Virus record (IMG/VR): IMGVR_UViG_3300037400_001757
Span: 3,219 to 67,218 of that record
Strand: one strand, 5' to 3'
DNA: 64,000 nucleotides
DNA from: a virus
Lineage: Duplodnaviria; Caudoviricetes
How positions within the stretch are numbered: position 1 is the stretch's first letter; every line of letters begins with the position of its first letter. Position numbers and translations under genes: made by a program. This document shows positions 749 to 59,597 of the stretch, piece by piece. The notes under the pieces are model-generated. The model did no database searches, had not been told where the DNA came from, and was given only the letters and a program-made list of their open reading frames with translations.

Positions 749-765
749 GATATTATAGTTCCTTC

Positions 766-1821: not shown

Positions 1822-1839
1822 GTTTAATTAATTACTCCT

Positions 1840-2307
1840 TTAAGCGAATTTAATGTCTTTAATAATATTTCTATCTGGGTATAACCTTTGATTACTAATA
1901 GCTAATTCCTTAATACAACTAGTAGTAGGAACTTTGACATAATCAAATTTAAAATCTAATACACTACTAGCATCATTTATATACATCAATAGATATGTAA
2001 ATAGTTGACTGCCATACATATCATAAGATAAGTAATTAGGTCTATAAGTCCATCTAGGTTGAAATTCTTTTATAACGGATTGACTTAATATAAAAGCTCT
2101 ATTAGTATCTAAGAATTCATTATTAAAATCTAAGAAAACTATAGTACTAGGTTTAATAGTAGAATTGGCATATTCAACATAAGCAGTAATTCTAAATAGA
2201 TCTCTATAATTATCACTATTTAAATTAGACTTATATTGTCTAGCACTATCTACTGATATATTCATATTAGGGTTAGAAGAATTACTCATCTTTGATAATT
2301 CCTCCAT
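1840..2307 (-). CDS. Baseplate wedge protein, T4 gp53-like / LysM-like
   Basis: YRPNYLSYDMYGSQLFTYLLMYIND resembles the gp53/LysM-type YRPDxxSYxxYG...N motif; located among virion genes. Confidence 0.55.
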   Translation of the reverse strand: MEELSKMSNSSNPNMNISVDSARQYKSNLNSDNYRDLFRITAYVEYANSTIKPSTIVFLDFNNEFLDTNRAFILSQSVIKEFQPRWTYRPNYLSYDMYGSQLFTYLLMYINDASSVLDFKFDYVKVPTTSCIKELAISNQRLYPDRNIIKDIKFA

Positions 2308-2866
2308 TAGTTATAGTCTTCCAATTATTAGCTTCATTATCAAAAGCATTATTCTTATCATCCATCAATTCACTACACTTATCTACTAGTTCAGGTATTA
2401 CTTCATAACCAGGTGTAGTTAATAGATAATTCCATTCACCTGTTATAAACTTAGGTGGTATTACTGCAAAACCATTATGATACTTTTCATGCCATGTAGT
2501 ACATAATGGTATAAAACCAATCTTATTATTATAATGTAGTGTCATGACATCATTAACGACATTCATACTAGTAAACTTCATATTATTCTTGATATATGTA
2601 GATACTATAATATTAGTGATATCAAATATAGTTAATGGGTGATGATGTATTTCAACAGTAACTTCATCAGATGTTTCACCTGTAATTAGACATGTCTTAT
2701 AACCTAACATATCTTTGACATATCTTACCCAATCCTTATATTCAGGTGTCTGCCTAGCTAATCTTACACAGTTCTTAATGAACATATCTTTTTCTTTTTC
2801 AGTTTCAAAACCGTTTCTAGGCATTTCTAAAGTATAGCTGCCATAATTCAAAGTATTATATGCCAT
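2282..2866 (-). CDS. HNH-like (His-Me finger) protein
   Basis: CLITG...EIHHHP...PLCTTWHEKYH pattern. Confidence 0.5.
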   Translation of the reverse strand: MAYNTLNYGSYTLEMPRNGFETEKEKDMFIKNCVRLARQTPEYKDWVRYVKDMLGYKTCLITGETSDEVTVEIHHHPLTIFDITNIIVSTYIKNNMKFTSMNVVNDVMTLHYNNKIGFIPLCTTWHEKYHNGFAVIPPKFITGEWNYLLTTPGYEVIPELVDKCSELMDDKNNAFDNEANNWKTITNGGIIKDE

Positions 2867-2874
2867 GATATTAA

Positions 2875-3780
2875 TTATCCTCTCTTTCCAAACATATTCT
2901 TAAAAGCAAAAGATGTAGGTGCTCTTTTAGAGAATAATGAAGTATTACGTTGTTTAGCTTTATCTATCTGTTCAGGTAAGACATTAAGAGTATTCTTATA
3001 TATCATATCATATGTGATAATACTAGCAAATTTAATATCATCTTGATCCCAACAATAGATTCTCTTATTAAGACTATCATCTACATATAATGTACTGAAT
3101 TGAGATCTTTTAAGATTACCTACACTTAAAGGAACATCTTCTTTCTTTGAATATTCAAATGTTTCCTTATTAATATCATTAGTAGATAAGATACATATTC
3201 TTTCTACGTTTTCACTAAATAATACTTTTTCAGTATATACCATTCTAGGATCTTCTTTACCACCAAACATCTTTTTATAGATATCAACTAATTTCCATAC
3301 ATTCTTATCAGATAATAATTGTCTAGCTTTTCTATATATCCAATATCTAGAACTATCAAGATTCTTTTCAAATATTTCTAAAGCATCTTTACTTACCAAT
3401 GATAATCCTTTAAAACCAAAAGTAAAGTCTTGAACAACTTTACTAGTGGTAGTTACTCTTATAGTGATAAAATAAGGTTGGTCATTTAATAACTTATTAG
3501 ACTCTACATTATCTATTATCTGAGTACCATAGCTACCAACATCTTCTTGTAACATAGGCCTATCTTCATTAAGATGTAATCTTAAAGTTGGCTGTAAATC
3601 ATAATTCATTAATTTAGTAGTAGTGCTTTCAATATGCATCTTATCTAGTTTAGATCTAATATCTTTTTCTATTAAAGATGAATAATCTAAAGCTACTCTT
3701 CTTTCTACAGCCTTAATAAGATAAGGTAACATTTCCTTATCTACAGTTTCGCTTATCAATACAGGAAATGTAATAACCAT
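2875..3780 (-). CDS. Hypothetical protein (301 aa), possibly virion-associated
   Basis: ORF with GGGAG RBS; no motif recognised. Confidence 0.75.
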   Translation of the reverse strand: MVITFPVLISETVDKEMLPYLIKAVERRVALDYSSLIEKDIRSKLDKMHIESTTTKLMNYDLQPTLRLHLNEDRPMLQEDVGSYGTQIIDNVESNKLLNDQPYFITIRVTTTSKVVQDFTFGFKGLSLVSKDALEIFEKNLDSSRYWIYRKARQLLSDKNVWKLVDIYKKMFGGKEDPRMVYTEKVLFSENVERICILSTNDINKETFEYSKKEDVPLSVGNLKRSQFSTLYVDDSLNKRIYCWDQDDIKFASIITYDMIYKNTLNVLPEQIDKAKQRNTSLFSKRAPTSFAFKNMFGKRG

Positions 3781-3818
3781 GGTAAACTCCCTAGTAGATT
3801 CTTGTTAATACTTATAAA

Positions 3819-4760
3819 TTAGAATAATATTGTTAGATTGTTATCGTTAGTAGTTTGTTGGGTATTATTAGAGGTATTACTTTCTTGAGGCAACTTTAAT
3901 TCAGTTTCATTATTAGATTTATCTTTACCTATATTGATAGCTTGTTGACAATCTACATAGTTTTCATTTCTCTTACATATAGATTCATATAAACAGAAAT
4001 TACAATTATGTTTTTCTGGATCTGGTAACACATGGTTTCTTAAGCAATAATCATATCGTTGAATCCTATTAATAATATTAGGAAACTCATTCTTTCTAGT
4101 TTCATCAGTAATAGCTTCTCTTCTTCTAGTAATAGTATTCATACTACTATTAAGATATATAACTTCTATAAATTTGATACATTCCTTTTTCATCATTTCT
4201 TCATAAGCTAAAGCATATAACTTAACTTGATTAATATGAAAATCATCAGGTGTATCTGTAAACTTACAATCTAATATAACATCTTCATTATATGATAATC
4301 CATCTATTACTATATTAAATGGATACTGTAAATTATAAGAAACAGGATTCCAATTTAATCTTATTCCATTTCTCCACTTAGTACCATCACATTGATTATA
4401 CATAGATAATAATAATTTTTCTACTACTTCACCCATACAAGCTTTAATAGTAGAATATGGATATTGTGCAATTCTATTACCATCATAAGGAGCGCCTTGT
4501 CTTAAATAATACATTTGTCTAGGACAACTTAATACTTCATAAGCATTATATTGCCTATAGGTTCTTTTGGTTTTAGTATTATTCCTTTGATAATTAACTA
4601 GCCATTCTTTTAATTTATCACTATCAAAACCTTCTTCTGGTATACTATTACTTAATGTAGGATTAATATTATTAGATACTAATGGTATATTATCTTTAGT
4701 TAAAGTTTCTGTTAATAATGATAATGCTATTGAATATGGATTGTATTTCTGAGTAGGCAT
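3819..4760 (-). CDS. Cas4-like / RecB-family PD-(D/E)xK nuclease with 4-Cys Fe-S motif
   Basis: SCPRQMYY (Cys1), IDGL...ILDCKF catalytic core, QVKLYALAY, CNFCLYESIC (Cys2-4). Confidence 0.8.
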   Translation of the reverse strand: MPTQKYNPYSIALSLLTETLTKDNIPLVSNNINPTLSNSIPEEGFDSDKLKEWLVNYQRNNTKTKRTYRQYNAYEVLSCPRQMYYLRQGAPYDGNRIAQYPYSTIKACMGEVVEKLLLSMYNQCDGTKWRNGIRLNWNPVSYNLQYPFNIVIDGLSYNEDVILDCKFTDTPDDFHINQVKLYALAYEEMMKKECIKFIEVIYLNSSMNTITRRREAITDETRKNEFPNIINRIQRYDYCLRNHVLPDPEKHNCNFCLYESICKRNENYVDCQQAINIGKDKSNNETELKLPQESNTSNNTQQTTNDNNLTILF

Positions 4761-4765
4761 AAGAT

Positions 4766-4793
4766 GATTCCTTTCATTTAAAATATGATTATA
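4766..4793 (-). promoter_or_regulatory. Putative -10/short-leader/RBS element shared with 21861..21888
   Basis: TATAATCATATTTTAAATGAAAGGAATC vs TATAATCATATTTAGAATGAAAGGAATC (26/28 identical), each just upstream of a start codon. Confidence 0.55.
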
Positions 4794-4800
4794 GACAAAA

Positions 4801-4834
4801 AATGGGTCCAGGTATATTTCAACCCAGACCCATT
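4801..4834 (-). terminator. Putative intrinsic terminator
   Basis: AATGGGTC...GACCCATT hairpin followed by a T-run on the minus strand. Confidence 0.55.
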
Positions 4835-4893
4835 ATATCAAAGAGGTAAAACGAAATATGACAAAATACACGAACGAGGTAGGATTATTCTTT

Positions 4894-5475
4894 TTAATAT
4901 ACTATGCCTGATTTAGACATATTCTTTGGACCTTGTCCACCTACACCAGCACTTAATGCCATCATGAATTGCTGTAATGTAGCTTTACTTCTCATATCAG
5001 CTTCTTGTCCATTTAATGTATATATAAGTTCCTTTAGTATATAAATCAATTTAAATTTTGTATCTATATAATTGACACCTATTAATACAGGTTGCCCTTT
5101 AGTGAATGTTATTAATATTCTTTGACTATCTTTAGTAATTTCAGGAAACATTCCTTTTAATTCATTTTCAGAAAATATTGTTTCTAGATCTTTAAAATCA
5201 TTTATCTCATCTTTACCATATAATAATGTTTCTAGTATTAATCTTATTTGGTCAGGTCTTACGATTACTTGTTGTTTAGTTTCTTTTACATAACCAATTA
5301 CTTGGCAACCAAAAACATTATATTTAGGTTCAAATAATCTTTCTATTAATATATAATCTAACCTTTCAGGATTAACAGCTATTACTTTATCACTATTAGG
5401 TAAATTAATAGTAGGCTTATTATATATAGATGATTCATTATTTAGGGTATCAATGTTTCCTATTTCAATAGACAT
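4894..5475 (-). CDS. Hypothetical protein (193 aa)
   Basis: ORF with GAAAGGAAC RBS. Confidence 0.75.
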   Translation of the reverse strand: MSIEIGNIDTLNNESSIYNKPTINLPNSDKVIAVNPERLDYILIERLFEPKYNVFGCQVIGYVKETKQQVIVRPDQIRLILETLLYGKDEINDFKDLETIFSENELKGMFPEITKDSQRILITFTKGQPVLIGVNYIDTKFKLIYILKELIYTLNGQEADMRSKATLQQFMMALSAGVGGQGPKNMSKSGIVY

Positions 5476-5530
5476 AATTAAAATTGGTTCCTTTCAAATA
5501 TAGTTTAATAATATTATTGTCTTATATATT

Positions 5531-5593
5531 AAAAGGAGAGGAGTACCCCCTAATAATCTATACTTTAGGTTTGAAATAGGTAACCCTCTCCTC
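5531..5593 (-). terminator. Putative intrinsic terminator
   Basis: GGAGAGG...CCCTA / TAGGG...CCTCTCC imperfect GC-rich hairpin, then TTTT on the minus strand, after the 228-aa gene. Confidence 0.55.
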
Positions 5594-5608
5594 ACTTGCA
5601 TATTATGA

Positions 5609-6295
5609 TTAGAAGTAGATATACCAAAGAACAATAAGTTCTCTATCTGCATCTATTCTAATAGTAGATGTAGTTACTCTAGCCAACATCTTAAATACAT
5701 TAGCTTGTAATGGATCATTAGTATTACTTAACCATAATGCCATTTCATTAAGATCTACACCAATAGCATCTTGATATAATATTGTTGTAGTTACTTTAGC
5801 AATTAGATATCTATTTTCATTTTCAGTATCTTGCTCAAATGTAATAGAATCAAATGGTTTCTTTCTACCACCATCTGTATATAATGGATTAGTACTATCT
5901 ATAATAGCTTCATTATTTAGTTGAGTATTATCAGTAGATGGAGCTATAGGAACTAATGGAGAAACAGGATCTGCACCGCCACTACCAATACTAAGCCATC
6001 TTACTCTTAAATCTTTTTCACCACTATCAGCTACTCTATTTTTATCAAATAATATCTGAGGTATTATTTCTCTACCTTGCCAAACGATAAGATTATTTTT
6101 ACCAGTACCACCAAATTCACAAGGTTTATCTTTTACAAGATATTCACCAGTTTTCTTATCTATAATTTGAACGAAGCCTTTTCTAGGTTTTAAAGTTTCA
6201 GGTATCTTTTCAGATACAGATACCTTATCTTTAACGTTCTTAATTTCATTATCAGCTATTGCTAATACAATAGGTTTCTTTTTAAATTCAGTCAT
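5609..6295 (-). CDS. Baseplate / tail-collar fibre-like structural protein
   Basis: KNNLIVWQGRE...WLSIGSGG...LNEMALW...MLARVT...IVLWYIYF pattern typical of tail-collar/baseplate proteins; directly follows a wedge gene. Confidence 0.5.
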   Translation of the reverse strand: MTEFKKKPIVLAIADNEIKNVKDKVSVSEKIPETLKPRKGFVQIIDKKTGEYLVKDKPCEFGGTGKNNLIVWQGREIIPQILFDKNRVADSGEKDLRVRWLSIGSGGADPVSPLVPIAPSTDNTQLNNEAIIDSTNPLYTDGGRKKPFDSITFEQDTENENRYLIAKVTTTILYQDAIGVDLNEMALWLSNTNDPLQANVFKMLARVTTSTIRIDADRELIVLWYIYF

Positions 6296-46979: not shown

Positions 46980-47165
46980 GTGGCTACGTATGATTATAGA
47001 TGTCCTAAATGTGGAAACGAAACTGAGATATTCCTTACGTTTAATAAGGAAGCTAAAATAATTTGTGATAAATGTGGAACTCAAATGACTAAGTTATTGA
47101 ATTCTGTTCCGATACATTTTAGGTGTAGTGGTTTCTATACTACAGATTATAAAAATAAGAAATGA
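46980..47165 (+). CDS. FmdB-family zinc-ribbon protein
   Basis: YDYRCPKCG...CDKCG...IHFRCSGFYTTDY; GTG start with AGGAG RBS. Confidence 0.85.
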   Translation: MATYDYRCPKCGNETEIFLTFNKEAKIICDKCGTQMTKLLNSVPIHFRCSGFYTTDYKNKK

Positions 47166-47181
47166 GGCATAGATCAAAATA

Positions 47182-47517
47182 ATGTTAGATAAATTCTATG
47201 CCATTGGCGAATCATTTGAGTATCATGGAAAGTTAATTACTTGTATAAAGAGTGATAGAGAAGACTATAGTTGTAATGGTTGTTTCTTTAAAAAGAAGTT
47301 ACATTGTAATTTAAAATGTGATTCTATTAATAGGCATGACCATCAGAATGTTATATTCATTAAAGAAAAACGTAAGAAACCTGAAAGAGATATTATATCT
47401 ACTATTGTTAATTTAAAGAAAAGATTAAAGTCTGATATTAGTTTAAGAATGATAAATGAAATAGAAAGATATATAGTATCATTAAGAAAGGAACTCTTAG
47501 ATTTAAGAGAAAAGTAA
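47182..47517 (+). CDS. Hypothetical protein with CxxC motif (111 aa)
   Basis: SCNGCFF...C...C...VIF. Confidence 0.65.
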   Translation: MLDKFYAIGESFEYHGKLITCIKSDREDYSCNGCFFKKKLHCNLKCDSINRHDHQNVIFIKEKRKKPERDIISTIVNLKKRLKSDISLRMINEIERYIVSLRKELLDLREK

Positions 47518-47519
47518 TT

Positions 47520-48065
47520 ATGTCAGAACAATACGATAATTACATTAGAGAACATAGGGATAATGTTATAAGAGCTTGGAATATTTTAAGTGATAATTTA
47601 CCTAGAGAATTTATAGAAAAGTATCATGTTAATATGGACAGAGTAGATGATAATATTATCTTACATGATAAATCTAAATTTGATGAAGAAGAATATGATG
47701 CTTATGATAAATACTTTTATAGAGATCCAACTGATAAATTTAATGTGTTAGTATTATCTGGTCAGATAGATAGACAAGCTGACTTTGATAAAGCATGGTT
47801 ACATCATCAACATCATAACCCTCACCATTGGCAATATTGGGTATTAAGAAATGATGATGGTAATACTAAAGTATTAGATATGGATATTGAATATATCTTA
47901 GAAATGATATGTGATTGGTGGTCATTTAGTTTAAAGAAAAATCAACCATTAGAAATTATACAATTCTATAAAGATAATGAAAGTACTAGAATATTAAGTA
48001 ATAAGACTAAAGTCATAGTATTAGAAATATTAGACATAATCAAAAAGATAAAGACCTTTGATTAA
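47520..48065 (+). CDS. HD-like protein (DUF5662-type)
   Basis: HDKSKF...AWLHHQHHNPHHWQYW...EMICDWWS. Confidence 0.65.
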   Translation: MSEQYDNYIREHRDNVIRAWNILSDNLPREFIEKYHVNMDRVDDNIILHDKSKFDEEEYDAYDKYFYRDPTDKFNVLVLSGQIDRQADFDKAWLHHQHHNPHHWQYWVLRNDDGNTKVLDMDIEYILEMICDWWSFSLKKNQPLEIIQFYKDNESTRILSNKTKVIVLEILDIIKKIKTFD

Positions 48066-48159
48066 AGTAATATATAATATAGGTCGAATATTGATAAGTT
48101 GAAGCAAGCCAGGTCTAGAGTTTTAAGGGCAAATTTTTCTCTAGATCTGGCCCTTCACC

Positions 48160-48516
48160 ATGCTGGCAAAAAATTTATGTCTAGTTGTATTAAATATCTT
48201 ATACCAAAAGGCGGGTCAAAATAATTTGGGTAAGAAAAAGAAAAAGGAAACGGTGTCTAGTAAACCTGTATTCGTAGATCCTATAGCTAGTAATGATGAT
48301 AGGATAAATGAGCTTATTGAATTATTAGAGGAAAGATCTAAAGAAAACAGAGAAGAATCAGGAAGAGTATCTACTACAGGAAGATGTCATTGTGGTGGTT
48401 ATCTATGGTGGCATGAAAGCTTAGGTTATTATAAATGTGGTGATTGCTTATGTAGATATGATAAAACTTTAGTTGATCCTGATTTAGCGGAAGTTCCAGA
48501 TAGTGAGAAACCATGA
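48160..48516 (+). CDS. Hypothetical zinc-finger protein (true start uncertain)
   Basis: CHCGG...YKCGDC. Confidence 0.5.
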   Translation: MLAKNLCLVVLNILYQKAGQNNLGKKKKKETVSSKPVFVDPIASNDDRINELIELLEERSKENREESGRVSTTGRCHCGGYLWWHESLGYYKCGDCLCRYDKTLVDPDLAEVPDSEKP

Positions 48517-48535
48517 AACATCAGCGTGGTTTAAG

Positions 48536-48575
48536 ACCTACTTAGAAACATATAAGTATGTCAATCTAAGTAGGT
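48536..48575. terminator. Hairpin at convergent junction (possible bidirectional terminator)
   Basis: ACCTACTTAGA / TCTAAGTAGGT 11-bp stem with inner ACATA/TATGT. Confidence 0.6.
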
Positions 48576-48592
48576 TAATTTAATCTTATAAA

Positions 48593-48772
48593 TTAGAAGC
48601 CGTAAGTATTTCTATCTTTAAATTCTTGTTTCTTACCAATATTAAAATTTTCTACAGGTCTGTAAAACCCCGTAACTCTAGAAAATACTTCTGTCTTGCA
48701 GTTACATCTTTGTACTTTTCTATGAGAATCTTCCATACTATTAACTTCATTTAGAATCATATCGTTATCCAT
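48593..48772 (-). CDS. Stand-alone NrdD C-terminal glycyl-radical domain (59 aa)
   Basis: Hand translation MDNDMILNEVNSMEDSHRKVQRCNCKTEVFSRVTGFYRPVENFNIGKKQEFKDRNTYGF*; AAAGGAG RBS at 48784-48790; too short to appear in the ORF track. Confidence 0.88.
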   Translation of the reverse strand: MDNDMILNEVNSMEDSHRKVQRCNCKTEVFSRVTGFYRPVENFNIGKKQEFKDRNTYGF

Positions 48773-48799
48773 TATAAGTAATACTCCTTTAGAGATATC

Positions 48800-49504
48800 T
48801 TAAGAGAAATTAGTAGAGGTGAAATTTTCATTAATTTTAGCTAAAAGTATACTTACAATTTCATCTTTACTTTTATTATTACAATCTATAATATGTTTTT
48901 GACAACCGTCAGTTGCCCATTCATCAGATTTTTCTATATAAAAGTTTTGAATCTTTTTAAAGTAATCAATATTATTCTTTTCAAATTTATCATCAGAAGA
49001 AGTTCTTTTTATAGCTGTAATAGGATCAATATCTAAAATGAATAATATATCTGGTACTAAGATTAAATCTAACATCTTATGTACTTTATAGATTCTTTCA
49101 TAGTCATTGTTCATTAAACCTTGATATACAAAAGAACTATAGACATATCTATCACTAATAGTAATATCACCTTTCTTCAAACTAGGTATAATAACCTTAT
49201 TAATATTTTCATTTCTACAGCCAGCAAATAATAAGAAGTCAGTTACATAATCAATAGTAGTTGTAGTATTAATAATAGTTTTTAACTTCTTACATATTGG
49301 GGTAGCACCTGGTTCTCTAGTAATTCTAACATCATATTTACTAGTACTAGGTTTTCTTTTAATTAATTCTTCACTTAATAGATTAGTGATAGTAGATTTG
49401 CCAGCTCCGTCTATTCCTTCTATTACTATTAGTTTACCTGGAAAATCTACATTATCATATTTCCAAGTACCATCAGATTGTAATACTTCCATCATACGTT
49501 TCAT
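48800..49504 (-). CDS. tmk: Thymidylate kinase
   Basis: IEGIDGAGKST, TREPG, LLFAGCR, DRYVYSSFVYQG. Confidence 0.93.
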   Translation of the reverse strand: MKRMMEVLQSDGTWKYDNVDFPGKLIVIEGIDGAGKSTITNLLSEELIKRKPSTSKYDVRITREPGATPICKKLKTIINTTTTIDYVTDFLLFAGCRNENINKVIIPSLKKGDITISDRYVYSSFVYQGLMNNDYERIYKVHKMLDLILVPDILFILDIDPITAIKRTSSDDKFEKNNIDYFKKIQNFYIEKSDEWATDGCQKHIIDCNNKSKDEIVSILLAKINENFTSTNFS

Positions 49505-49522
49505 AATTTTAAATAGTTCCTT

Positions 49523-49735
49523 TCAAAGAATTTCTTTTTTGATATATAATCTACAACAACAATTACCAGTTTCTCTCATATTCTTACAAGGGCATATAGT
49601 GTCTTCAGTCATAGGAGAAACACAAGGACAATGATTACCATTTTTAGATAATCTTTCTCTAATAGAATTTACTATCTTTTCGTTAGGATTTAAAATAAGG
49701 TTATATTTATCTAAGTATATGTTGACATCTTCCAT
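49523..49735 (-). CDS. Ferredoxin:thioredoxin reductase catalytic (beta) subunit-like
   Basis: HCPC...ICPCK...CCC (CPC/CPC/CxC) signature, 70 aa. Confidence 0.8.
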   Translation of the reverse strand: MEDVNIYLDKYNLILNPNEKIVNSIRERLSKNGNHCPCVSPMTEDTICPCKNMRETGNCCCRLYIKKEIL

Positions 49736-49795
49736 AAGACGTTCCTTTCGTGAAATAATTAACTTTTCTTAAATAATATTAAGAATTATATAGAT

Positions 49796-49993
49796 TCATT
49801 TAATGATTTCTAAGATATCTTCTATCTTACAATCTAATTCATTACATATACGATCTAATACTGACAATGCAACATATTCATTCTTACTAAGTTTAGCTAT
49901 TGTTGCACCAGTTACTTTGATTCTATTCATGAGCTCTGTTTTAGTGATATTACGATCTATCATTAATTTTAGTAATCGTTTATAACTTACCAT
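49796..49993 (-). CDS. Xre/Cro-C1-type HTH regulator
   Basis: MVSYKRLLKLMIDR...IAKLSKNEYV...LDRICNELDCKIEDI. Confidence 0.85.
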   Translation of the reverse strand: MVSYKRLLKLMIDRNITKTELMNRIKVTGATIAKLSKNEYVALSVLDRICNELDCKIEDILEIIK

Positions 49994-50024
49994 AATTTTC
50001 CTTTCTCTTATAATAAAATAAAGT

Positions 50025-51537
50025 TAATTAGATAAGGATCTAATTAGTTATTATTTTATAAAGGAGAATTATGGTTTATGATTACTATGAAATTAAAGTA
50101 TAAAACTGATAATTCTTCTACTATATTAGATCTTATTAAGAATTATAACTCAATATATCATTTAGTTTATAATTATCTTTTTGATAACCCTAAAGCAAGT
50201 ACTAAAGATATCATGGCTTTTCTTAAAACTAAGAATAATATTAATCTAGATACTTATTTTAAGAATGGTGCTATTTATGATGTTAAGACAACACTTGCTA
50301 TGAATAATAATCATGACAAGAAAAATATCTTTGGTGGAAGAAAACTTTTTCTTGATAGATTACATAATAAGATTACTAAGGAAGAATTTCAATTAAAGAA
50401 ACTAAGACCTTTGCAAGTTGTAGGAGCTGCTTACGACTGCGGGAACTTAAAGTTTAAGATACAAACTAATTCTAGAATATTATTTAAGCCTAATCGTAAA
50501 GAACACTATATCTTAAATTTAGAATCAGTTGGTAAGAATTATAGAAAGAAATTAGATGCTTTATTGATTGCTCAGAATAATAAGCAGTTGCCAATAACTT
50601 ATAGGTTAAGTACAGATTATATCTATATGATGTTTGATGAATCTAAACTAGAACCAATCAAAGAAACTGTCAAAAAGAAAGATAGAATCTTTTCTATTGA
50701 TATGAATCCTAATTATATAGGCTGGTCTGTAATTGATTGGAAAGATTCTGATAAATATTATATAGTAAAATCTGGAGTAGTTTCTTTAAAGCCACTTAAT
50801 GATTATGAGAATTCTCTTACTGTTTCTATTAATAGTCCGGAAAAGAAGTATTGTACTAATAAGAGAAAATATGAAATTATTAATGTAGCTTATCAATTAT
50901 GTAATACTGCCAATCATTATAAATGTGAATTATTTTCTTTAGAAGATTTATCAATAGTGTCTAAAGATAATCATATGGGTAGAAGGTTCAATAAGTTAGT
51001 TAATAACCAATGGAATAGAAAATTACTGGAAAATATTATTAAGAAACTTTGTGATGTATATTCAATCAAAGTAACTAAAGTTAATCCAGCTTATTCTAGT
51101 ATCCAAGGTAATTTAACTTACAGATCTGAACACTTACCAGATATGATTTTATCTAGTATAGAAATTTCAAGACGTGCTTATGAGTTACATCATCAGTACA
51201 ACTTGAAAGATAAACCACAAATACGTAATATAATTTTTAATAATTCTGAGAATTCTATTAGCAGAATACGTCAGTCGTTGGAAGAATTGAAATATTCTGT
51301 AGAATTTAAAGAATTAAAGGAATTATATTATGTCATCTTACATCAAAAAAGTGAAAGTTGTAAGTATCGCTTTTCTATTGAGGAAGCAATTAAATGCCAC
51401 CCCAATAGTTTTTCAAGCCTAAACCATATAAAAGCTTATAAAATTCTTTATATTTTTTAACGTTTTTATATTATTTAGGTATTATAAGGCTACTTACCTT
51501 TTGACATATATAATTGTTATGCCATGGTAAGTAGCCT
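50025..51537 (+). mobile_element. Putative non-autonomous IS200/IS605-type element (tnpB only)
   Basis: tnpB flanked by palindromes 50025..50046 and 51487..51537, oriented opposite to the surrounding cluster; no tnpA seen; exact ends unknown. Confidence 0.5.
50078..51460 (+). CDS. tnpB: TnpB-like RuvC nuclease
   Basis: RuvC-I FSIDMNP, RuvC-II SLEDL, VNPAYSS, RuvC-III PDMILSSIEISRR. Confidence 0.85.
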   Translation: MITMKLKYKTDNSSTILDLIKNYNSIYHLVYNYLFDNPKASTKDIMAFLKTKNNINLDTYFKNGAIYDVKTTLAMNNNHDKKNIFGGRKLFLDRLHNKITKEEFQLKKLRPLQVVGAAYDCGNLKFKIQTNSRILFKPNRKEHYILNLESVGKNYRKKLDALLIAQNNKQLPITYRLSTDYIYMMFDESKLEPIKETVKKKDRIFSIDMNPNYIGWSVIDWKDSDKYYIVKSGVVSLKPLNDYENSLTVSINSPEKKYCTNKRKYEIINVAYQLCNTANHYKCELFSLEDLSIVSKDNHMGRRFNKLVNNQWNRKLLENIIKKLCDVYSIKVTKVNPAYSSIQGNLTYRSEHLPDMILSSIEISRRAYELHHQYNLKDKPQIRNIIFNNSENSISRIRQSLEELKYSVEFKELKELYYVILHQKSESCKYRFSIEEAIKCHPNSFSSLNHIKAYKILYIF

Positions 51538-51563
51538 AAATATTGAGAAGCAAAAAAATTACT

Positions 51564-53804
51564 TTAAGATTCGACTTCTATACAATTAGGACAAGTTTCA
51601 TGTTCCCCAGATATATATCCACATCTTGGACATATACTGAAGGTAGGAGTGAAACTAATGTATGGAATCTTGAAGTTGTTACATATCTTCTTTAATAAGA
51701 TTTTAACAGATTCATAGTCATCTAACTTTTCACCCATATACATATGGAAGACTGTTCCACCTGTATATAATGGTTGTAATTCATTTTGATGACTTAAATC
51801 ACTAAATAGATCTCCCATAGATTTAACACTTATATTACTAGAGTTGGTATAATATGGAGATTCTTTAGTACCAGCTGTAATGATATTCTTATATCTTTCG
51901 ACATCTATTTGGGCAAGCTTGTATGCTGTTCCCTCTGCCGGCGAAGACTCCAAGTTAAATGGAGTCTTATATTGTTCTTGATATTGAACCATTTTATCTC
52001 TCATGAAGTTTAATATTTCTTTTGATAATTCTAAACCTTGAGGAGATGTAATATCCTTATTCATATAATTAAGACATAGTTCATTCATACCAACTAATCC
52101 AATAGTATTAAAATGGTTAGCTAGATAAGAACCAAGTCTTTTCTTAATATCAGCTAGATATATTTTAATGTAAGGATATAAACCATACTCGACATTCTTT
52201 TCAATGATTTCTCTTTTTCTAATTAAAGATCTAGCAGCTATATCCATCAATGCTTCTAGTCTTTCAAAGATTTCTTTCTTAGTTTTAGAGAGATAACCTA
52301 TTCTTGGCATATTAATAGTAACTACACCAACAGAACCAGTCATAGGATTACTACCGAATAAGCCACCACCTCTTTTTCTAAGTTCTCTATTATCAATTCT
52401 TAATCTACAACAGTTATGAGTTAATATGTCATCAGCAAAGAAATCATGCACTTCTTCATCATCTATTTCAATATCATAGACATTAAGTTTTCTACTAGAT
52501 TTGATATATTCAATTCTATCTATTTTAGAAAAGAATTGTTCACCGGTAGTAGGCTTATTAATTAAGACTTTCATTCCTTCTTTTAAATTCGTAGCTATAA
52601 CGACTTCTTGTTCATCTTTATCATTATATACAACTTGAGGATGATTGTCTGTTATTCTAAGTTTATAACCATCTGTAGTAATGAATTCTACAAATGAATC
52701 TGATGTAGTTTTGATAACACTTTTAATTGGTTTAAATCCTTGAGAAGTTTTTACTAGATATTCTTGATGGAATTTAATTTTACCTTGAGAATGTTTAGAT
52801 CTTTCTACTAAGTCACCAATCATCATTCTACTAATAGTATTACCGTTTTTCTTTTGAACATACAGATTAGTTTCATATTTAAGACACATAGATCTAGCAT
52901 CATCTGGACTCATATCACTACCGCAGAAATTAGCAAAGTAAGGTATACCAAACTTAGCAGTCATTTCCCATAATGGTATTAACTCAGGATTATCCCAATT
53001 AAAATCTTCAGTAATATTATATGTAGGTATAGGGAATGTGAATATTCTTTGACTAGCATCTCCTGTCATCATAACTTCACAGAATGCCTTATTAATCATA
53101 TTCATTTCATTCTGGAACATTCCATAAGTTTCTTCTTGAACTTCTCCACCTATTATAATATTCTTATCTTTTAGAATATTAGGACATTGTAGATCTAATG
53201 TGATATTAGTGAATGGTGTTTGGAATCCTGCTCTAGTTGGAACATTCATATTATAAATGAATTCTTCCATTAGTTGTTTTACTTCTTCATATTTAAGATT
53301 ATCTCTCTTTACGAAAGGAGCTAGATATGTATCAAATGAAGAAAAGGCTTGTGCACCTGCAGATTCACCTTGCATAGTATAGAAGAAGTTCCATATCTGT
53401 CCTAATACAGCAGCAAAATGTTTAGGAGGTCTAGATCTAACTTTACCCATAACACCACCGAAACCTTTTATGAGTAACATTTCTAAATCCCAACCCATAC
53501 AATAAGCTGTTAGATATCCTAAATCATGAATATGAAAATCTCCTCTTATATGAGTTTCTCTAATATCTTTATCATATACATTGTATAACCAATATAATGA
53601 ATTACTATATTGAACTATATGGTCATACATACCTTGAATAGAATAACTAGAATTAGAATTTTCTTTGATTCTCCAGTTATTATGACTTATATAATTATCT
53701 ACTAATGAAATACTCTTTTGAATATAACTGTCAGTAGGATTAAATTCATTACTTACTATAGGAACTACTTTACGTTGATGGGTTTCAATTACAGTATCTG
53801 ACAT
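51564..53804 (-). CDS. nrdD: Class III (anaerobic) ribonucleotide reductase large subunit, intein-containing, lacking the glycyl-radical tail
   Basis: GDFHIHDL, GAQAFSSFD, FQTPFTN, SM[intein]CCRL, ESSPAEG, YTGGTVFH, terminal CPRC...CPNC. Confidence 0.95.
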   Translation of the reverse strand: MSDTVIETHQRKVVPIVSNEFNPTDSYIQKSISLVDNYISHNNWRIKENSNSSYSIQGMYDHIVQYSNSLYWLYNVYDKDIRETHIRGDFHIHDLGYLTAYCMGWDLEMLLIKGFGGVMGKVRSRPPKHFAAVLGQIWNFFYTMQGESAGAQAFSSFDTYLAPFVKRDNLKYEEVKQLMEEFIYNMNVPTRAGFQTPFTNITLDLQCPNILKDKNIIIGGEVQEETYGMFQNEMNMINKAFCEVMMTGDASQRIFTFPIPTYNITEDFNWDNPELIPLWEMTAKFGIPYFANFCGSDMSPDDARSMCLKYETNLYVQKKNGNTISRMMIGDLVERSKHSQGKIKFHQEYLVKTSQGFKPIKSVIKTTSDSFVEFITTDGYKLRITDNHPQVVYNDKDEQEVVIATNLKEGMKVLINKPTTGEQFFSKIDRIEYIKSSRKLNVYDIEIDDEEVHDFFADDILTHNCCRLRIDNRELRKRGGGLFGSNPMTGSVGVVTINMPRIGYLSKTKKEIFERLEALMDIAARSLIRKREIIEKNVEYGLYPYIKIYLADIKKRLGSYLANHFNTIGLVGMNELCLNYMNKDITSPQGLELSKEILNFMRDKMVQYQEQYKTPFNLESSPAEGTAYKLAQIDVERYKNIITAGTKESPYYTNSSNISVKSMGDLFSDLSHQNELQPLYTGGTVFHMYMGEKLDDYESVKILLKKICNNFKIPYISFTPTFSICPRCGYISGEHETCPNCIEVES
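52413..52886 (-). mobile_element. Mini-intein (158 aa, no homing endonuclease) in nrdD
   Basis: Begins Cys (CLKYET), block B ITDNH, ends VYDIE...THN followed by Cys+1; removal restores DARSMCCRLRID. Confidence 0.92.
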
Positions 53805-53819
53805 TTATAAAACTTCCTT

Positions 53820-54545
53820 TCAAAAATTTCTAAAGAAAACATTATCACACTTCTTAGTAATAGGTTCTATTATCTTAGTGATTTCATCTTTTCTAAATGG
53901 TATTATATCTACATCGTTAAATGCTCTGATATTAATATGGAATTCTTCACCAAAGTATTTAAAATTTTGGATATAGATGTGATCTTGTTTCTGTAAGAAT
54001 TTAGCCATACCTTTAGCAACTTCTTCATTAAAGAAATCTCTAGTAACAGTAGTTCTAAATTCATAATGTTCAGGATCTAAATTTTCTCTAATGATTCTCA
54101 TAGATTCTGTTATAGCATCTGATATATCACATTTAGAAAAGACGCCTTTATATTCTGATGGAATAGTCTTATAGTCCATGGCGATATAATCTATCTTTTT
54201 AGATTTAAGTAATGGTTCTAACACTTCAGGTCTAGTTCCATTAGTATCTAATTTAATATTAATATTAGGAACTGTTCTTTTAATATCATCTAATAATTCG
54301 ATTAATTCTAAATGATATAATGTAGGTTCACCACCACTAATACATACACCAGTATTAAAGTTTTCTCTATCTTTCAATTCTTTTAAGATATAGTCTTTAG
54401 ATAATGGTTGCATACTTCTGTTAGGATATACTAACGACTTGTTATAACAATAAGGACAATGCAAGTTGCAATCAGCTAAGAAAATAATGCTGGCAACTTG
54501 CTTAGGATAATTAATAAGGGTCGTGCCCTGAAACCCCAAGATCAT
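53820..54545 (-). CDS. nrdG: Anaerobic RNR activase (radical SAM)
   Basis: CNLHCPYC, ISGGEP, KLDTNG, YEFRTT; adjacent to nrdD. Confidence 0.92.
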   Translation of the reverse strand: MILGFQGTTLINYPKQVASIIFLADCNLHCPYCYNKSLVYPNRSMQPLSKDYILKELKDRENFNTGVCISGGEPTLYHLELIELLDDIKRTVPNINIKLDTNGTRPEVLEPLLKSKKIDYIAMDYKTIPSEYKGVFSKCDISDAITESMRIIRENLDPEHYEFRTTVTRDFFNEEVAKGMAKFLQKQDHIYIQNFKYFGEEFHINIRAFNDVDIIPFRKDEITKIIEPITKKCDNVFFRNF

Positions 54546-54559
54546 GGGTTAATCTCCCT

Positions 54560-55273
54560 TCAGATTCTATTTGTAATATAGTCTCCGATAAAGTCCCATG
54601 ATTGTGATATAAAGCATTCGTGTAAGTCTGCGTTACATTTTGACAAATAACTTAGTAAATTATTCCAGATTATAGCAACATAGGCTTTATCTTTGACCCT
54701 ATTTATTTTATCTTTTAAAGGCATGTCTTCTAGCATCTCGAACAAATTTTCTAGATTATTTTGAATTTCTTTATACATAGTACAATCTAGTAAGTTAATT
54801 ATTTTAAGATAAAAGTTAAAAATATAAAATGAATCCATTCTACTTAACTTGTCATTCATTACTGTAAAATCAAAGTATTCAAACTTATCATTTAAATAGT
54901 AATTAAAATAATTTATGCCAGCTAATATAATAGAGTCATATTGATAAGCATAGTCATAATCAAAAGGAATAGTTGTACTTATATTATATGGTTTAGTAAT
55001 AGTATAAGATTCCCTTATAAAAGGATTACTAAATTCTAGTATATTTTCATAGACTACTCTTTGATATATTTCTTCATTGAACTGTTCCATCATAGTAACT
55101 TCTATATGGTTTAAATCATAAAAGTCATTTAGTCTACTTAATAGAAAGTTACTATTGTAATTAGTATTATGAACTTTATCACTAGTTACATTATCATATA
55201 CGATAGTATTTCTACTTAAAGTATTTTCATATTTATCATAGAAAGAAATATTTTCTTCAGCTATTATAGGCAT
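54560..55273 (-). CDS. Hypothetical protein (237 aa)
   Basis: ORF between the RNAP beta and nrdG genes. Confidence 0.7.
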   Translation of the reverse strand: MPIIAEENISFYDKYENTLSRNTIVYDNVTSDKVHNTNYNSNFLLSRLNDFYDLNHIEVTMMEQFNEEIYQRVVYENILEFSNPFIRESYTITKPYNISTTIPFDYDYAYQYDSIILAGINYFNYYLNDKFEYFDFTVMNDKLSRMDSFYIFNFYLKIINLLDCTMYKEIQNNLENLFEMLEDMPLKDKINRVKDKAYVAIIWNNLLSYLSKCNADLHECFISQSWDFIGDYITNRI

Positions 55274-55277
55274 AGTA

Positions 55278-58200
55278 TTAATTACCTCCGAATTCTAACA
55301 TCATTAATCTAAAGTAAACTTCAAGTAAATCTCTAGTAGGAGTAGAATACATCTGAGGTGGTATATGACTATAACCATTTTCAATAATGTTAGATATTAA
55401 TTGATTCTTAGCTATATGGTCATCACTTAAAGGACCAAACATTTCTCTAAGAATATTGGTTGCACCATTAGAGAATAATGACCAAGAATCAAATTCACCT
55501 ACTCTTTGACCACTCTTAGCATTAGAACTAATAGTAGGTTGACCTGTTCTACTATTGTAAGAACCAGTAGATCTACTAGCTAACTTATGAGAACTTACGT
55601 GTTCCATCTTATACATATATAGATAACCAACAGTGACAGGAAACTTAGTTTTTACATTAGGTCCATAATGAGGTAAGTCTAAATAGTATTTATCTTTTAA
55701 TCCTACAGCACTTAGACCAGCAGCTATTTCTTTCATTGAAGGAGTATGGTATGTAGGATATATCCAAGGTAAACCTCTTTGTGTTTTAAGGTTTTCTAAC
55801 CATCTATTAAAGTTATCTTTACTCATAGACTTAATTACATTCATATAAGTTTTAGATATAATTTTATCTTTACTACCATCTAGTATCTTATAGTATACCT
55901 TATTAATTATATCTACTACGTGTTTCTGTGTAGGAGATTTCATTATTTCTTGTTTGACTTTCCAACCTATTAAGCCTAGTAATGCTTCAAATAATTGACC
56001 AGGATTCATACGGCCTATAACACCTAATGGATTGAAGATAATATCAATAGGTTCACCCCAAGGAGTAACTGGCATAGCTTCATCTCTCAAAGCTATAACA
56101 CCCTTATTACCATGCCTGTTAGCATATTTATCACCTAAGTTATCACCAGTTTCTAGATATTCAAAATCTAATTCAATAACCATACCTTCGATTTTAGTAC
56201 CCTTAATATTATAGTGTCCACTTTCAGTAAGGTTATGTTTCTGGCTAGATATTAACCATAGTTGTTTTAATTCAGGGTAATCTTTGATATCTTCATTACT
56301 ATAGATTCTAACATCTATAAGTTTACCATTCTTGTTAGCTTTATGTTTAACTACGCCACCGCCATATATTCTTTCATCAGGATTAAGTTCAATATATTGG
56401 GCAAGGTTTCTAGGAACATAACTAATAATAGTATCACCTTGTTCATACTCAATACCTTCACCTATCTTTAATAACTTTTGAACTACATCAAATCTATCAC
56501 CTTTTTCACTTCTGCCAGGTACTACTAAGAATTTAGTAGCAGGTGGTATATTTAATGTGATAGTTTCCATGTGTCTACTAGTAACAGCATCTCTAGCCTT
56601 ACTAGATAATATAATAGCATCGTCATGGTTAGATCCATTGTATGGCATAAATGCTGCTAATAGATTAGTGCCTAATGATATAGTACCATCTTTGATAGAT
56701 GAACCTTCAGCTAATAATTGATACTTCTTTACCTTTTGGCCTTGATTAACTTTAACATCATAATAGGATATACTATGAACAGACATACCTGATGTTAGTT
56801 TTTGTGGATCTAAATCAACTATTTGCTTTTTACCCTTAGAACCATTCTCAGTAGATTCAATAATTATCTTATCATCTTCAATAGATTTAACTACACCATC
56901 ATATATAGACTTCTTTACATAGTTAGAACTAAGGTAACCAGCTAATGCAGTTTCATAACCTGTCTGAACTAATGGTACTTGTTTATGTAATAATGGAACA
57001 GACTGTCTTACTTGGTTAGCAGCCATAATTAATCTAGCGCCAGCATCATGATTACTAAAAGGTGTAAAAGAAGTACTTAGAGAATTAATACCATTTCCTT
57101 CCTTATTATCTTTTTCTTTAATAACGAAGTTACCACGGTTATCTCTTATTTCAGCATCTACTGCCAAGTGTTGTAACATACCTACGTTGCCACCACCTTC
57201 AGGTGTATCAATGGTATCTATTGTTCCATAATAAGTTTCATCGACAGTTCTCATCTTTTCAGGAACACCGTCAGCATTAGCTACGCCACCTATACCAACA
57301 TAAGTAACTCTTGTAGCACTAGCCATTTCTTCAACAGGATTAACACATTCATTCTGTCTTATTAATTGAGAGCCAGTAATCTGTTTATATACATAATCAG
57401 CTTCTAGTGAGAATGGTGCATTATTATAACCAATTAATCTTTTAGTTTCATACACTCTATAAGCCATAAGTAATTGCTTATATAATATCTGTAAGAAAGT
57501 TTCAGTAGATCTATACCTTTCAATAGATAAGTCAGTTCTTCTATTAGCTTTATCTGTATGAACTTCTTTAAAGCATCTCCATATCAATTCATCTAATATT
57601 AATGGATAGCCTTGGCCTTCAATAATTTCTAATGAGATAGGATCTAAGAAACCTTCATAAAAAGATTCTATAGAATAACCAGCATTCTTTCTACCTGTGG
57701 TTATAACCATTAATTCTTTTTGGAAACTATTATCTAAGAATTGACTAGATGTAATATGCCTATTCTTATAGTTAATTAATCCCATACTATGGAAAATAGT
57801 TCTAGCATATTCATTAGATTCCATTATATTAACAGGGAAGAATATGTACTCATTATTATCAAAAGATAAGAACCATTTAGCATTATCCTTTTTAGCTTTT
57901 CTAGTATCAGCTTCGTTATCAGTAATGATTAAATCTTTTCTAGTAAAACCTAATCTCTTAAATAAGTCATCTAAACCATTTTTAAATAATGTAGAAAAGA
58001 TAAGATACATAGGTACAACCATACCAACTACGTAAGATATAGCATAAGCTTTCTTTCTTACAATTCTATATTGAATTTGCATAGTAGAGAAGTAAGTACT
58101 TATCTTACATAAATGAGGTTCAGGGAAGTAAACAGGTTTCAATGATAATTGACCAATTAAGACTTTACTTAAACCATTGATAGTCATAGTACCATCCTTA

Positions 58201-59597
58201 TTAATATAAGGAAGTAATACTTCATTAGGATATTCAGTACCTTGGTCATCTTTCATTATGAATTTAAATGACACATATTTACTAGCCTTAATATCAGCTG
58301 TATCATATTTAGTATCAATGTTATACTTAACTAATTTTAATGGAAACTTTTTAGTAGAGAATGTCTTTAAGATTTTGACTAAATCATTAAATAGATTAGT
58401 ATTAAAATCTCTTTGCTTATTTTCCATAATAGAACCAGGTACCTTATTATCTAATACTTCATTAATATTAATCTTAGATCTTACTTCATCAGTAGATATA
58501 TTATTATGCTTATAGTCAGTACTAGATCTTTCAACATATTTACCTAGTTCATTATCATAACTAGTAATCTTATTAGTAATATCTTTCTTAGGCAACTTCT
58601 TAATATCTTCTCTAGATACAGATGCCATAGTATTATCAAATTCTTTTCTATTACCAGTAACTTTATATTTAACAGCAGCTAATTGTAAAGCTTTCTTTCT
58701 TAATTTATCTTCTTCATTGGTACTATTATTATTTAGTATCTCAGTAATGTCATTAGCTTGTTCAGGATGTTTCTGTACTATAAATGAAATAGATTCTTTA
58801 ATAACATCTTTAGCTTTTTCAGAAGATACTCTCATCATGTCTTTCTTAGCCATGACATTACTTATAGTATTAGTTTCACTTTCAGTTAATTCCATTTCAT
58901 TAGCTATTTGGTTACCAAAGTTTTCTAAAGCAATATCACTTACTTTTATAGATTTAAATAATGCTAAAGCTTTGACATAATTTATCTTTTCATTCTTATC
59001 ATATAATTTAACATAAGTAGGAGTACCAGCACTTCCAATTACACACAAGTAAAGACAGTTAATATAAGGAATGTTTTCTTTCTGTCTTAAATAATGAAAC
59101 ATAGGTATCCATAACAATCTTCTATTTAAAGCAACTTGAAAATCTTTTCTAGTATCTATTATATATAGTAAGACATTATAGAAATCTTTATCATCAGCAA
59201 ATGTAGATAAGGCACTAGTAAATAACATATTGGCCCTAGGTGTATTAAAGACATTCCTAGTTCTGTTTCTTATAGTATTACCAAATGCAGTTAAGTCAAC
59301 CATACAATTTCTATTGGCCTTATTAACTTGCTTCATATAATTGTAAGTAATTAACCCTTTAGTTTTCATTAACTTACTTGATTCTTTATCACTTTGAAAT
59401 ACACTACCACCAATAGAATATCTTGGACTAGTATATACTTTAATATCTGTTTTGGTAATATCTAAATTATCCCATATATCAACTAGGTTTACATTTTCTG
59501 TTAAAGCTAAAACTTTATAAGTCTTGGTTCTTGTTACTGGGTATCTTAACTTATTGACCTTCCTTGTAAACAATGGTAATTGCTCTGGTGTAAACAT
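55278..59597 (-). CDS. rpoB: Phage multisubunit RNA polymerase beta-like subunit with about 400-aa N-terminal extension
   Basis: GTMTINGLSKVLIGQL, DTPEGGNVG, ANQVRQSVPL, GSNHDDAI, GDKYANRHGNKGV, NPLGVIGRMNPGQ, YMYKMEH, GQRVGEFDSW. Confidence 0.92.
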   Translation of the reverse strand: MFTPEQLPLFTRKVNKLRYPVTRTKTYKVLALTENVNLVDIWDNLDITKTDIKVYTSPRYSIGGSVFQSDKESSKLMKTKGLITYNYMKQVNKANRNCMVDLTAFGNTIRNRTRNVFNTPRANMLFTSALSTFADDKDFYNVLLYIIDTRKDFQVALNRRLLWIPMFHYLRQKENIPYINCLYLCVIGSAGTPTYVKLYDKNEKINYVKALALFKSIKVSDIALENFGNQIANEMELTESETNTISNVMAKKDMMRVSSEKAKDVIKESISFIVQKHPEQANDITEILNNNSTNEEDKLRKKALQLAAVKYKVTGNRKEFDNTMASVSREDIKKLPKKDITNKITSYDNELGKYVERSSTDYKHNNISTDEVRSKININEVLDNKVPGSIMENKQRDFNTNLFNDLVKILKTFSTKKFPLKLVKYNIDTKYDTADIKASKYVSFKFIMKDDQGTEYPNEVLLPYINKDGTMTINGLSKVLIGQLSLKPVYFPEPHLCKISTYFSTMQIQYRIVRKKAYAISYVVGMVVPMYLIFSTLFKNGLDDLFKRLGFTRKDLIITDNEADTRKAKKDNAKWFLSFDNNEYIFFPVNIMESNEYARTIFHSMGLINYKNRHITSSQFLDNSFQKELMVITTGRKNAGYSIESFYEGFLDPISLEIIEGQGYPLILDELIWRCFKEVHTDKANRRTDLSIERYRSTETFLQILYKQLLMAYRVYETKRLIGYNNAPFSLEADYVYKQITGSQLIRQNECVNPVEEMASATRVTYVGIGGVANADGVPEKMRTVDETYYGTIDTIDTPEGGGNVGMLQHLAVDAEIRDNRGNFVIKEKDNKEGNGINSLSTSFTPFSNHDAGARLIMAANQVRQSVPLLHKQVPLVQTGYETALAGYLSSNYVKKSIYDGVVKSIEDDKIIIESTENGSKGKKQIVDLDPQKLTSGMSVHSISYYDVKVNQGQKVKKYQLLAEGSSIKDGTISLGTNLLAAFMPYNGSNHDDAIILSSKARDAVTSRHMETITLNIPPATKFLVVPGRSEKGDRFDVVQKLLKIGEGIEYEQGDTIISYVPRNLAQYIELNPDERIYGGGVVKHKANKNGKLIDVRIYSNEDIKDYPELKQLWLISSQKHNLTESGHYNIKGTKIEGMVIELDFEYLETGDNLGDKYANRHGNKGVIALRDEAMPVTPWGEPIDIIFNPLGVIGRMNPGQLFEALLGLIGWKVKQEIMKSPTQKHVVDIINKVYYKILDGSKDKIISKTYMNVIKSMSKDNFNRWLENLKTQRGLPWIYPTYHTPSMKEIAAGLSAVGLKDKYYLDLPHYGPNVKTKFPVTVGYLYMYKMEHVSSHKLASRSTGSYNSRTGQPTISSNAKSGQRVGEFDSWSLFSNGATNILREMFGPLSDDHIAKNQLISNIIENGYSHIPPQMYSTPTRDLLEVYFRLMMLEFGGN

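Follow-up and report, generated by a model that had tools for sequence, protein, structure and literature searches.

Class III ribonucleotide reductases (RNRs) are textbook single-chain glycyl-radical enzymes. In the phage DNA examined here, a stretch of 64 kb (the window) from the 67-kb IMG/VR virus record IMGVR_UViG_3300037400_001757, such an enzyme is encoded in two separate parts: a catalytic subunit, NrdD, which ends before the radical glycine (the body), and a protein of 59 amino acids (aa) which carries this glycine (the tail). Judging from the sequence, the locus is likely to specify a functional, obligate two-subunit class III RNR in which the radical glycine is provided in trans. This reading builds on the anatomy of the genes, on their conservation, on the selection acting on both parts and on the wide recurrence of the design. 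An earlier note, made from the letters of the window, had already proposed a large subunit together with an autonomous glycyl-radical gene. The present analysis bears this out: gene order is conserved, both parts evolve under purifying selection, the tail holds the sole radical-glycine motif of the record, the activase gene nrdG is intact, and there is no sign that the two parts are joined.

A radical-glycine domain in a gene of its own

Four features define the system, all of them located on the minus strand.

53820..54545, minus strand: nrdG, the radical S-adenosylmethionine (SAM) activase of class III RNR (TIGR02495 NrdG2; Pfam Radical_SAM and Fer4_12)
51564..53804, minus strand: nrdD body, the catalytic subunit, 746 aa (Pfam NRDD; NCBIfam NF006126)
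52413..52886, minus strand: mini-intein of 158 aa (aa 307-464 of NrdD; NCBIfam intein_Nterm and intein_Cterm, Pfam Intein_splicing)
48593..48772, minus strand: tail gene, a stand-alone glycyl-radical protein of 59 aa (Pfam NRDD positions 521-562)

The body matches both family models (Pfam NRDD, E 9.8e-166; NCBIfam NF006126, 877 bits versus a cut-off of 548), and the Pfam profile is reached only to position 528-531 of 562. As the earlier note had stated, the protein terminates after its zinc ribbon and contains no radical-glycine motif: its C-terminus reads CPRC...CPNCIEVES and the stop codon follows, 5 residues past the last zinc-ribbon cysteine. The four-cysteine ribbon itself is complete and conserved across the clade, and an ATP-cone is absent. 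In a PDB sequence search, the body aligns with the NrdD chains 8P23 and 4COI until just past the zinc site.

The missing portion is found in the reading frame running from 48772 to 48593, which the same note had singled out as the tail, with an AAAGGAG ribosome-binding site (RBS) and a glycine at codon 35. All of these assignments hold. The 59-aa protein covers positions 521-562 of NRDD (E 4.8e-9; 35.9 bits, cut-off 26.2), the body lacking positions 532-562. The radical residue, Gly35, is encoded at 48668-48670 and lies in the motif SRVTGFYRP. This motif is preceded by a clade-specific N-terminal extension (aa 1-22) and by Cys23 and Cys25, and is followed by a C-terminal helix. The AAAGGAG sequence is located 11 nt upstream of the ATG, and the start codon is supported by synonymous changes in codons 3-4 among relatives. 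Searched against Pfam at E up to 0.01, the tail matches NRDD only, with no match to Gly_radical, the C-terminal family of pyruvate formate-lyase (PFL); a PDB sequence search at E up to 1 returns no match. Apart from the body and the 59-aa tail, the 67-kb record has no further NRDD matches in Pfam. AlphaFold2 predicts for the tail alone, at low confidence, that strands 28-30 and 37-39 form a hairpin around Gly35, along with a helix from 40 to 56 and a disordered N-terminus. The resemblance between the end of the body (CPNC-IEVES) and the beginning of the conserved part of the tail (C-NC-KTEVFS) was considered as a duplication at the junction and rejected, as fused relatives (CPKC-TIEQP-C-EVYSRV) align the body end with the linker.

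The nrdD gene is interrupted by a mini-intein located between SM and CCRLR, immediately ahead of the Cys-Cys in the active-site loop. The intein shows Cys1, a TDNH block and a THN with Cys+1 behind it, and its splicing residues are intact. Once the intein is removed, the loop SM-CCRLR is restored as seen in fused relatives, for example in the bodies of L001 and L014. In a near-identical relative, L011, this position is occupied by a full-size intein that includes an HNH endonuclease domain, within a 1094-aa open reading frame (L011:5653-8937). Given this full-size counterpart, the mini-intein of the window has lost its endonuclease.

Directly upstream of the body, nrdG scores 151.2 bits with the NCBIfam model TIGR02495 NrdG2 (cut-off 131.15). 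The nrdG gene, the body, a small gene, the thymidylate kinase gene tmk and the tail gene share one strand and are surrounded by genes of nucleotide metabolism. Activase, body and tail are together in one operon-like block of the window.

Conservation and selection in related phages

An identical or related 59-aa protein occurs as a separate gene on eleven other contigs (78-95% identity), from which the relatives L005-L013 were fetched. In all fetched relatives with long enough contigs, the order nrdG, tail-less nrdD, a gene of 68-70 aa, tmk and tail gene is maintained. The ratio of nonsynonymous to synonymous substitution rates (dN/dS) was estimated by the Nei-Gojobori method in six pairwise comparisons of four phage genomes. 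The values of 0.055-0.097 for the body and 0.09-0.22 for the tail show purifying selection in both cases, so that the arrangement is no chance reading frame; those of tmk are 0.015-0.069. For nrdG, dN is 0-0.014, and equals 0 in three of the six comparisons.

The bodies of the clade (P0015-P0027; 69-89% identity in the C-terminal half) are all tail-less and end after a complete zinc ribbon and a short acidic stretch. Every relative above 69% identity is tail-less, and no close relative with a fused NrdD was found among them, whereas the more distant relatives listed (at most 63% identity) are nearly all fused. In IMG/VR, the nearest match to the C-terminal part of the body (aa 466-746) is 57% identical. 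A distant member of the clade on a metagenome contig (L186) contains a body, a macro-domain gene, tmk and a tail of 50 aa. Since the tail gene follows tmk even there, this placement is old.

One segment of the tail gene departs from this picture of close similarity. Over 12 kb of synteny, the phages share 96-98% identity with the window (median, 90-nt windows); the first 57 nt of the tail gene show only 2-3 differences, and the N-terminal extension is nearly invariant. In the patch at 48593-48715 (120 nt excluding the stop), which encodes the radical domain, 35 of 120 positions differ in L005 and 31 of 120 in L009. Synonymous recodings that alter several bases account for many of these differences, and dN/dS is still 0.1-0.2. 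Three allele classes of the patch can be distinguished, A (window and L011), B (L005) and C (L009); they differ at about 25-30% of nucleotides, mostly synonymously, and are mutually as far apart as from unrelated tails. No donor of the divergent patch was found among 265 loci. A diversity-generating retroelement was considered as the source of the variable 3′ patch and rejected, given that the substitutions show no specificity for adenine and mostly amount to synonymous recodings of several bases. A second hot spot of divergence is the small gene between body and tmk (see below).

Distribution beyond the phage clade

The suspicion voiced in the earlier note that the split might not be unique was correct and understated: the phage genes belong to a large family spread across many phyla. 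When 185,579 species genomes were scanned for the pattern, 257 tail-like loci emerged, the best 80 of which were examined. About half of these 80 consist of a short gene directly after a tail-less NrdD, and the co-occurrence of tail-less NrdD with stand-alone tail genes, for which the note had suggested a genome survey, is encountered in many of them. The hosts include Lentisphaerota, Planctomycetota, Spirochaetota, Thermodesulfobacteriota, Muiribacteriota, Iainarchaeota and others. Tail-less NrdD accompanied by a putative tail gene, usually an adjacent one, is common in uncultured microbes and occurs in numerous phyla of bacteria and archaea. Cellular relatives often have the tail in another frame than the body, or overlapping the stop of the body.

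Two types of breakpoint can be recognized. In the first, seen in the species-genome loci, the body ends with C-x2-H ... C-P and thus holds three zinc ligands, and the tail starts with a methionine, a few residues and Cys-x2-3-K-TEVYSRV. Because fused relatives read C-P-x-C-x2-3-K-TEVYSRV, the invariant cysteine of these tails aligns with the fourth zinc ligand. In such enzymes, the zinc site may be shared between the two chains. In the second type, represented by 62 of 80 loci from a metagenome scan, the split occurs after a complete C-x2-H ... CPKC and the tails read ...TKCEVYSRV. The break of the phage clade is of this second type.

A quick IQ-TREE phylogeny of 64 bodies, from which the metagenome set and incomplete bodies were excluded, requires five changes between the split and the fused state, at least four of which are forced by strongly supported branches. 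The phage clade forms a separate long branch. Five cellular genomes (G001-G005) each contain one NrdD body, always tail-less, together with 2-5 tail genes, some of them far from nrdD. Two of the five have no match to class I or class II RNR, all five being metagenome-assembled so that absence is not proof; in these two genomes, the split enzyme would be the sole RNR. In Lentisphaerota (L020, L023, L024, L025, L034), two tandem tail genes are present behind a tail-less nrdD.

Searched against 1.84 billion representative proteins, the tail profile gives 4830 matches at E up to 0.001. Of these, the best 150 range from 46 to 313 aa in length, and 138 of the 150 have at most 122 aa. Among viral contigs, a short tail gene that lacks an NrdD body in the surrounding 6 kb or so makes up about 35 of the 80 best loci. 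In another viral contig, of 114 kb (L165, positions 94-6150), a distance of 2.8 kb and six unrelated genes separate a tail-less body from a tail of 47 aa. The body of L165 contains inteins, one of them with a LAGLIDADG domain.

Genes and hairpins around the two parts

The other features of the locus are the following.

55278-59597, minus strand: RNA polymerase beta-like gene, 1439 aa, adjoining the RNR cluster (Rpb2 domains in relatives)
49759..51483, no strand assigned: TTAT-flanked insertion of 1725 bp, absent from relatives
50078-51460, plus strand: tnpB-like gene, 460 aa (blastn similarity; weak Pfam match to C2c1_RuvC-like, E 0.03)
49796-49993, minus strand: helix-turn-helix (HTH) gene (HTH_26), 65 aa, within the insertion
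49523..49735, minus strand: gene similar to the beta subunit of ferredoxin-thioredoxin reductase (FTR-beta-like), 70 aa, CPC...CPC...CCC (Pfam FeThRed_B, 22.6 bits, cut-off 22; phrog_38239, E 3.9e-10)
48800..49504, minus strand: tmk, thymidylate kinase (Pfam Thymidylate_kin, E 8.8e-36)
51490..51534, no strand assigned: hairpin just 3′ of the nrdD stop, stem CTACTTA / TAAGTAG
48538..48573, no strand assigned: hairpin just 3′ of the tail-gene stop, related to the post-nrdD hairpin

The earlier note had counted four genes between the two parts. All four are present, but two of them, the tnpB-like gene and the HTH gene, belong to an insertion seen in the window alone. In L005, L009 and L011, the hairpin behind nrdD runs directly into the RBS of the FTR-beta-like gene; the insertion occupies the spacer between this conserved hairpin and the RBS of the next gene. 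It is recent, and ancestrally in this subclade only the FTR-beta-like gene and tmk separate body and tail. At the nucleotide level (blastn), the tnpB-like gene resembles the annotated ISCaje4 tnpB of Campylobacter phages and sequences of Lak megaphages.

The two hairpins share the stem core CTACTTA / TAAGTAG and a loop containing TTGACATA, and their mutual orientation is opposite. Their pattern has exactly two matches in the 64-kb window, versus 0.05 expected by chance. In relatives, the hairpin behind nrdD retains its stem while the loop varies; the one behind the tail gene is almost invariant despite the strongly diverged coding patch next to it.

In L005, L009 and L011, which are close relatives, the FTR-beta-like gene retains its place between body and tmk. 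The cysteine pattern CPC...CPC...CCC of its 70-aa product equals that of the catalytic subunit of ferredoxin-thioredoxin reductase. A ferredoxin:disulfide reductase reportedly serves the class III RNR of Methanosarcina barkeri and, by analogy, the FTR-beta-like protein could be part of the electron supply of the phage RNR. No glutaredoxin was found in the phage record. A human faecal phage (MT835493.1; L001:4090-7410) encodes a full-length NrdD of 802 aa that has a thioredoxin/glutaredoxin-like extension at its C-terminus; a thioredoxin-reductase-like gene of 302 aa comes next.

The G+C content of the window is 29%, and the completeness of the 67-kb record is estimated at about 21%. Together with the 1439-aa RNA polymerase beta-like gene, this value points to a large source phage with a genome of about 300 kb and its own multisubunit RNA polymerase.

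Proposed mechanism and alternative explanations

Activation, docking and catalysis of the two-part enzyme can be pictured by analogy with single-chain NrdD. After removal of the intein, the large subunit would contribute the catalytic barrel, the active-site cysteine loop and the complete zinc ribbon, while the 59-aa protein would supply the Gly35 hairpin in trans. NrdG and S-adenosylmethionine would generate the radical on Gly35, and the hairpin would be accommodated in the barrel beside the loop cysteine, in the manner of the fused tail of single-chain NrdD. In the enzyme of Prevotella copri, the zinc site, the Gly711 loop and a C-terminal tail crossing the surface form one domain (residues 676-739), which is mobile and in some states disordered (PMC11226230). 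Considering this mobility, a cut between the zinc site and the glycine loop is structurally plausible.

Several points weigh against an obligate two-part enzyme. The model of the tail alone reaches a mean predicted local distance difference test (pLDDT) score of only 55. The body of the phage clade already holds all four zinc ligands, which leaves no evident means of retaining the tail. Among near-identical phages, the radical domain of the tail is far more diverged than its flanks, which is unexpected for a protein that must fit a nearly invariant body. Finally, the record being only about 21% complete, it is possible that a second, full-length NrdD is encoded elsewhere in the phage genome.

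Decay of the locus, with nrdD truncated and dead or dying and the 59-codon frame a leftover fragment, might be suspected from a body which stops before an essential motif and from the insertion sequence within the locus. The latter is recent and lies in an intergenic spacer, however, and the truncated form together with the separate tail is conserved over a clade spanning 69-100% identity, at dN/dS values of about 0.05-0.2. The tail moreover possesses its own RBS and a conserved N-terminal extension of 22 residues, and nrdG as well as the splicing residues of the intein are intact; we therefore judge decay very improbable. Even slimmer is the chance that trans-splicing, a split intein or ribosomal bypassing joins the parts into a normal single-chain NrdD during or after expression. 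Introns and inteins are known from phage RNR genes, and the present nrdD does contain an intein, but the body stops 5 residues past the zinc ribbon without an intein N-fragment, and the tail begins at an ATG with an RBS of its own. The parts are separated by 2.8 kb in the window and by 1.1 kb in relatives, with complete genes in between, and the cellular tail frames described above, often out of frame with the body or overlapping its stop, equally disagree with joining. An Rfam scan of 47000-55500 at E up to 1 detected no intron, the single hit being a chance snoRNA match, and trans-splicing via an intron was rejected on this ground. A split intein was likewise rejected, as the intein signals of Pfam and NCBIfam are all internal to the body, with none at its C-terminus or in the tail.

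Two further ideas concern the role of the tail rather than its existence. That it could be exchanged and cheaply replaced, or could rescue a host NrdD, is circumstantially favoured by the 2-5 tails per cellular body and by the many phages with a tail gene alone. In its strongest form, the tail would be a diffusible, consumable radical carrier, charged by NrdG off the enzyme, docking to any compatible phage or host NrdD and swapped after cleavage by oxygen. We regard this as a tentative and rather unlikely extension; if true, it would be the first such cofactor protein outside pyruvate formate-lyase, and the three patch alleles would stem from exchange, or from selection to suit different partner bodies. 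A mainly host-directed spare part, re-arming the host body or replacing oxygen-cleaved host tails while the phage body is secondary or incidental, seems improbable to us. The viral loci without a nearby body and the several tail genes per cellular body would suit it, and three very different patch alleles in phages that are 96-98% identical could mean matching to different partners. On the other hand, the phage's own body and activase are under strong purifying selection, this body has no other source of a radical glycine, and the tail is linked to it across the clade; the two roles are also mutually compatible. An obligate two-subunit RNR with its glycine in trans thus remains the reading we favour.

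Significance

Our literature search found no description of a split NrdD, and the two-gene class III RNR family appears to be unpublished. If the proposed arrangement is correct, it offers a natural NrdD with the radical loop in trans, a clean system in which to study access of the activase to the glycine and exchange of the loop. Oxygen damage would then require the replacement of a peptide of only about 7 kDa, and the occurrence of the tail gene alone in many phages would be explained. There are also consequences for annotation: tail-less NrdD genes resemble pseudogenes and their partners of 40-100 residues often remain uncalled. With activase, body and tail in one operon-like block, the phage is a convenient test case.

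Comparison with known systems

The closest counterparts are the single-chain NrdD enzymes with their NrdG activases, such as those of phage T4 (1H78/1H79), Thermotoga maritima (4COI/4U3E) and Prevotella copri (8P23), which belong to the same Pfam and NCBIfam family as the phage body. They share with it the type of activase, the active-site loop, the zinc ribbon and the radical-glycine motif. The difference lies in the chain, which in the phage is cut between the zinc site and the glycine loop, leaving the radical glycine on a separate polypeptide of 59 aa.

A small free-standing glycyl-radical hairpin protein, with an N-terminus that is probably disordered, is also the description of GrcA (YfiD) from Escherichia coli and of Y06I from phage T4, both autonomous cofactors for pyruvate formate-lyase. 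Formate lyases are the only glycyl-radical enzymes known to have spare-part proteins, according to a review of June 2026 (PMC13450708), and T4 vs.6 (Y06I) is a phage-borne example of the PFL type (PMC1524935; PMC13450708). In contrast to the phage tail, which matches NRDD only, GrcA shares homology with the tail of PFL (Pfam Gly_radical). Furthermore, the parent enzyme that GrcA backs up has a tail of its own, whereas the only NrdD in the (incomplete) phage record has none. Lacking a radical domain in its parent NrdD, the small protein of the phage would be obligatory, unlike GrcA.

A phage RNR catalytic subunit encoded as two genes whose products must assemble has a precedent in class I: nrdA of Aeromonas phage Aeh1 is said to be split by the homing endonuclease gene mobE (attributed to Friedrich et al., PNAS 2007). 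The present case concerns another RNR class, and no endonuclease gene lies between the phage parts; tmk and a small redox or macro-domain gene are found there instead.

Conceptually, the arrangement is also reminiscent of class I RNR in general, where catalytic body and radical carrier are different polypeptides. In that class, a tyrosyl or metal radical is generated on the separate subunit NrdB and delivered to NrdA over a long relay path. The phage tail is not homologous to NrdB, and its glycyl radical would be formed by a radical-SAM enzyme and lie right next to the active-site cysteine.

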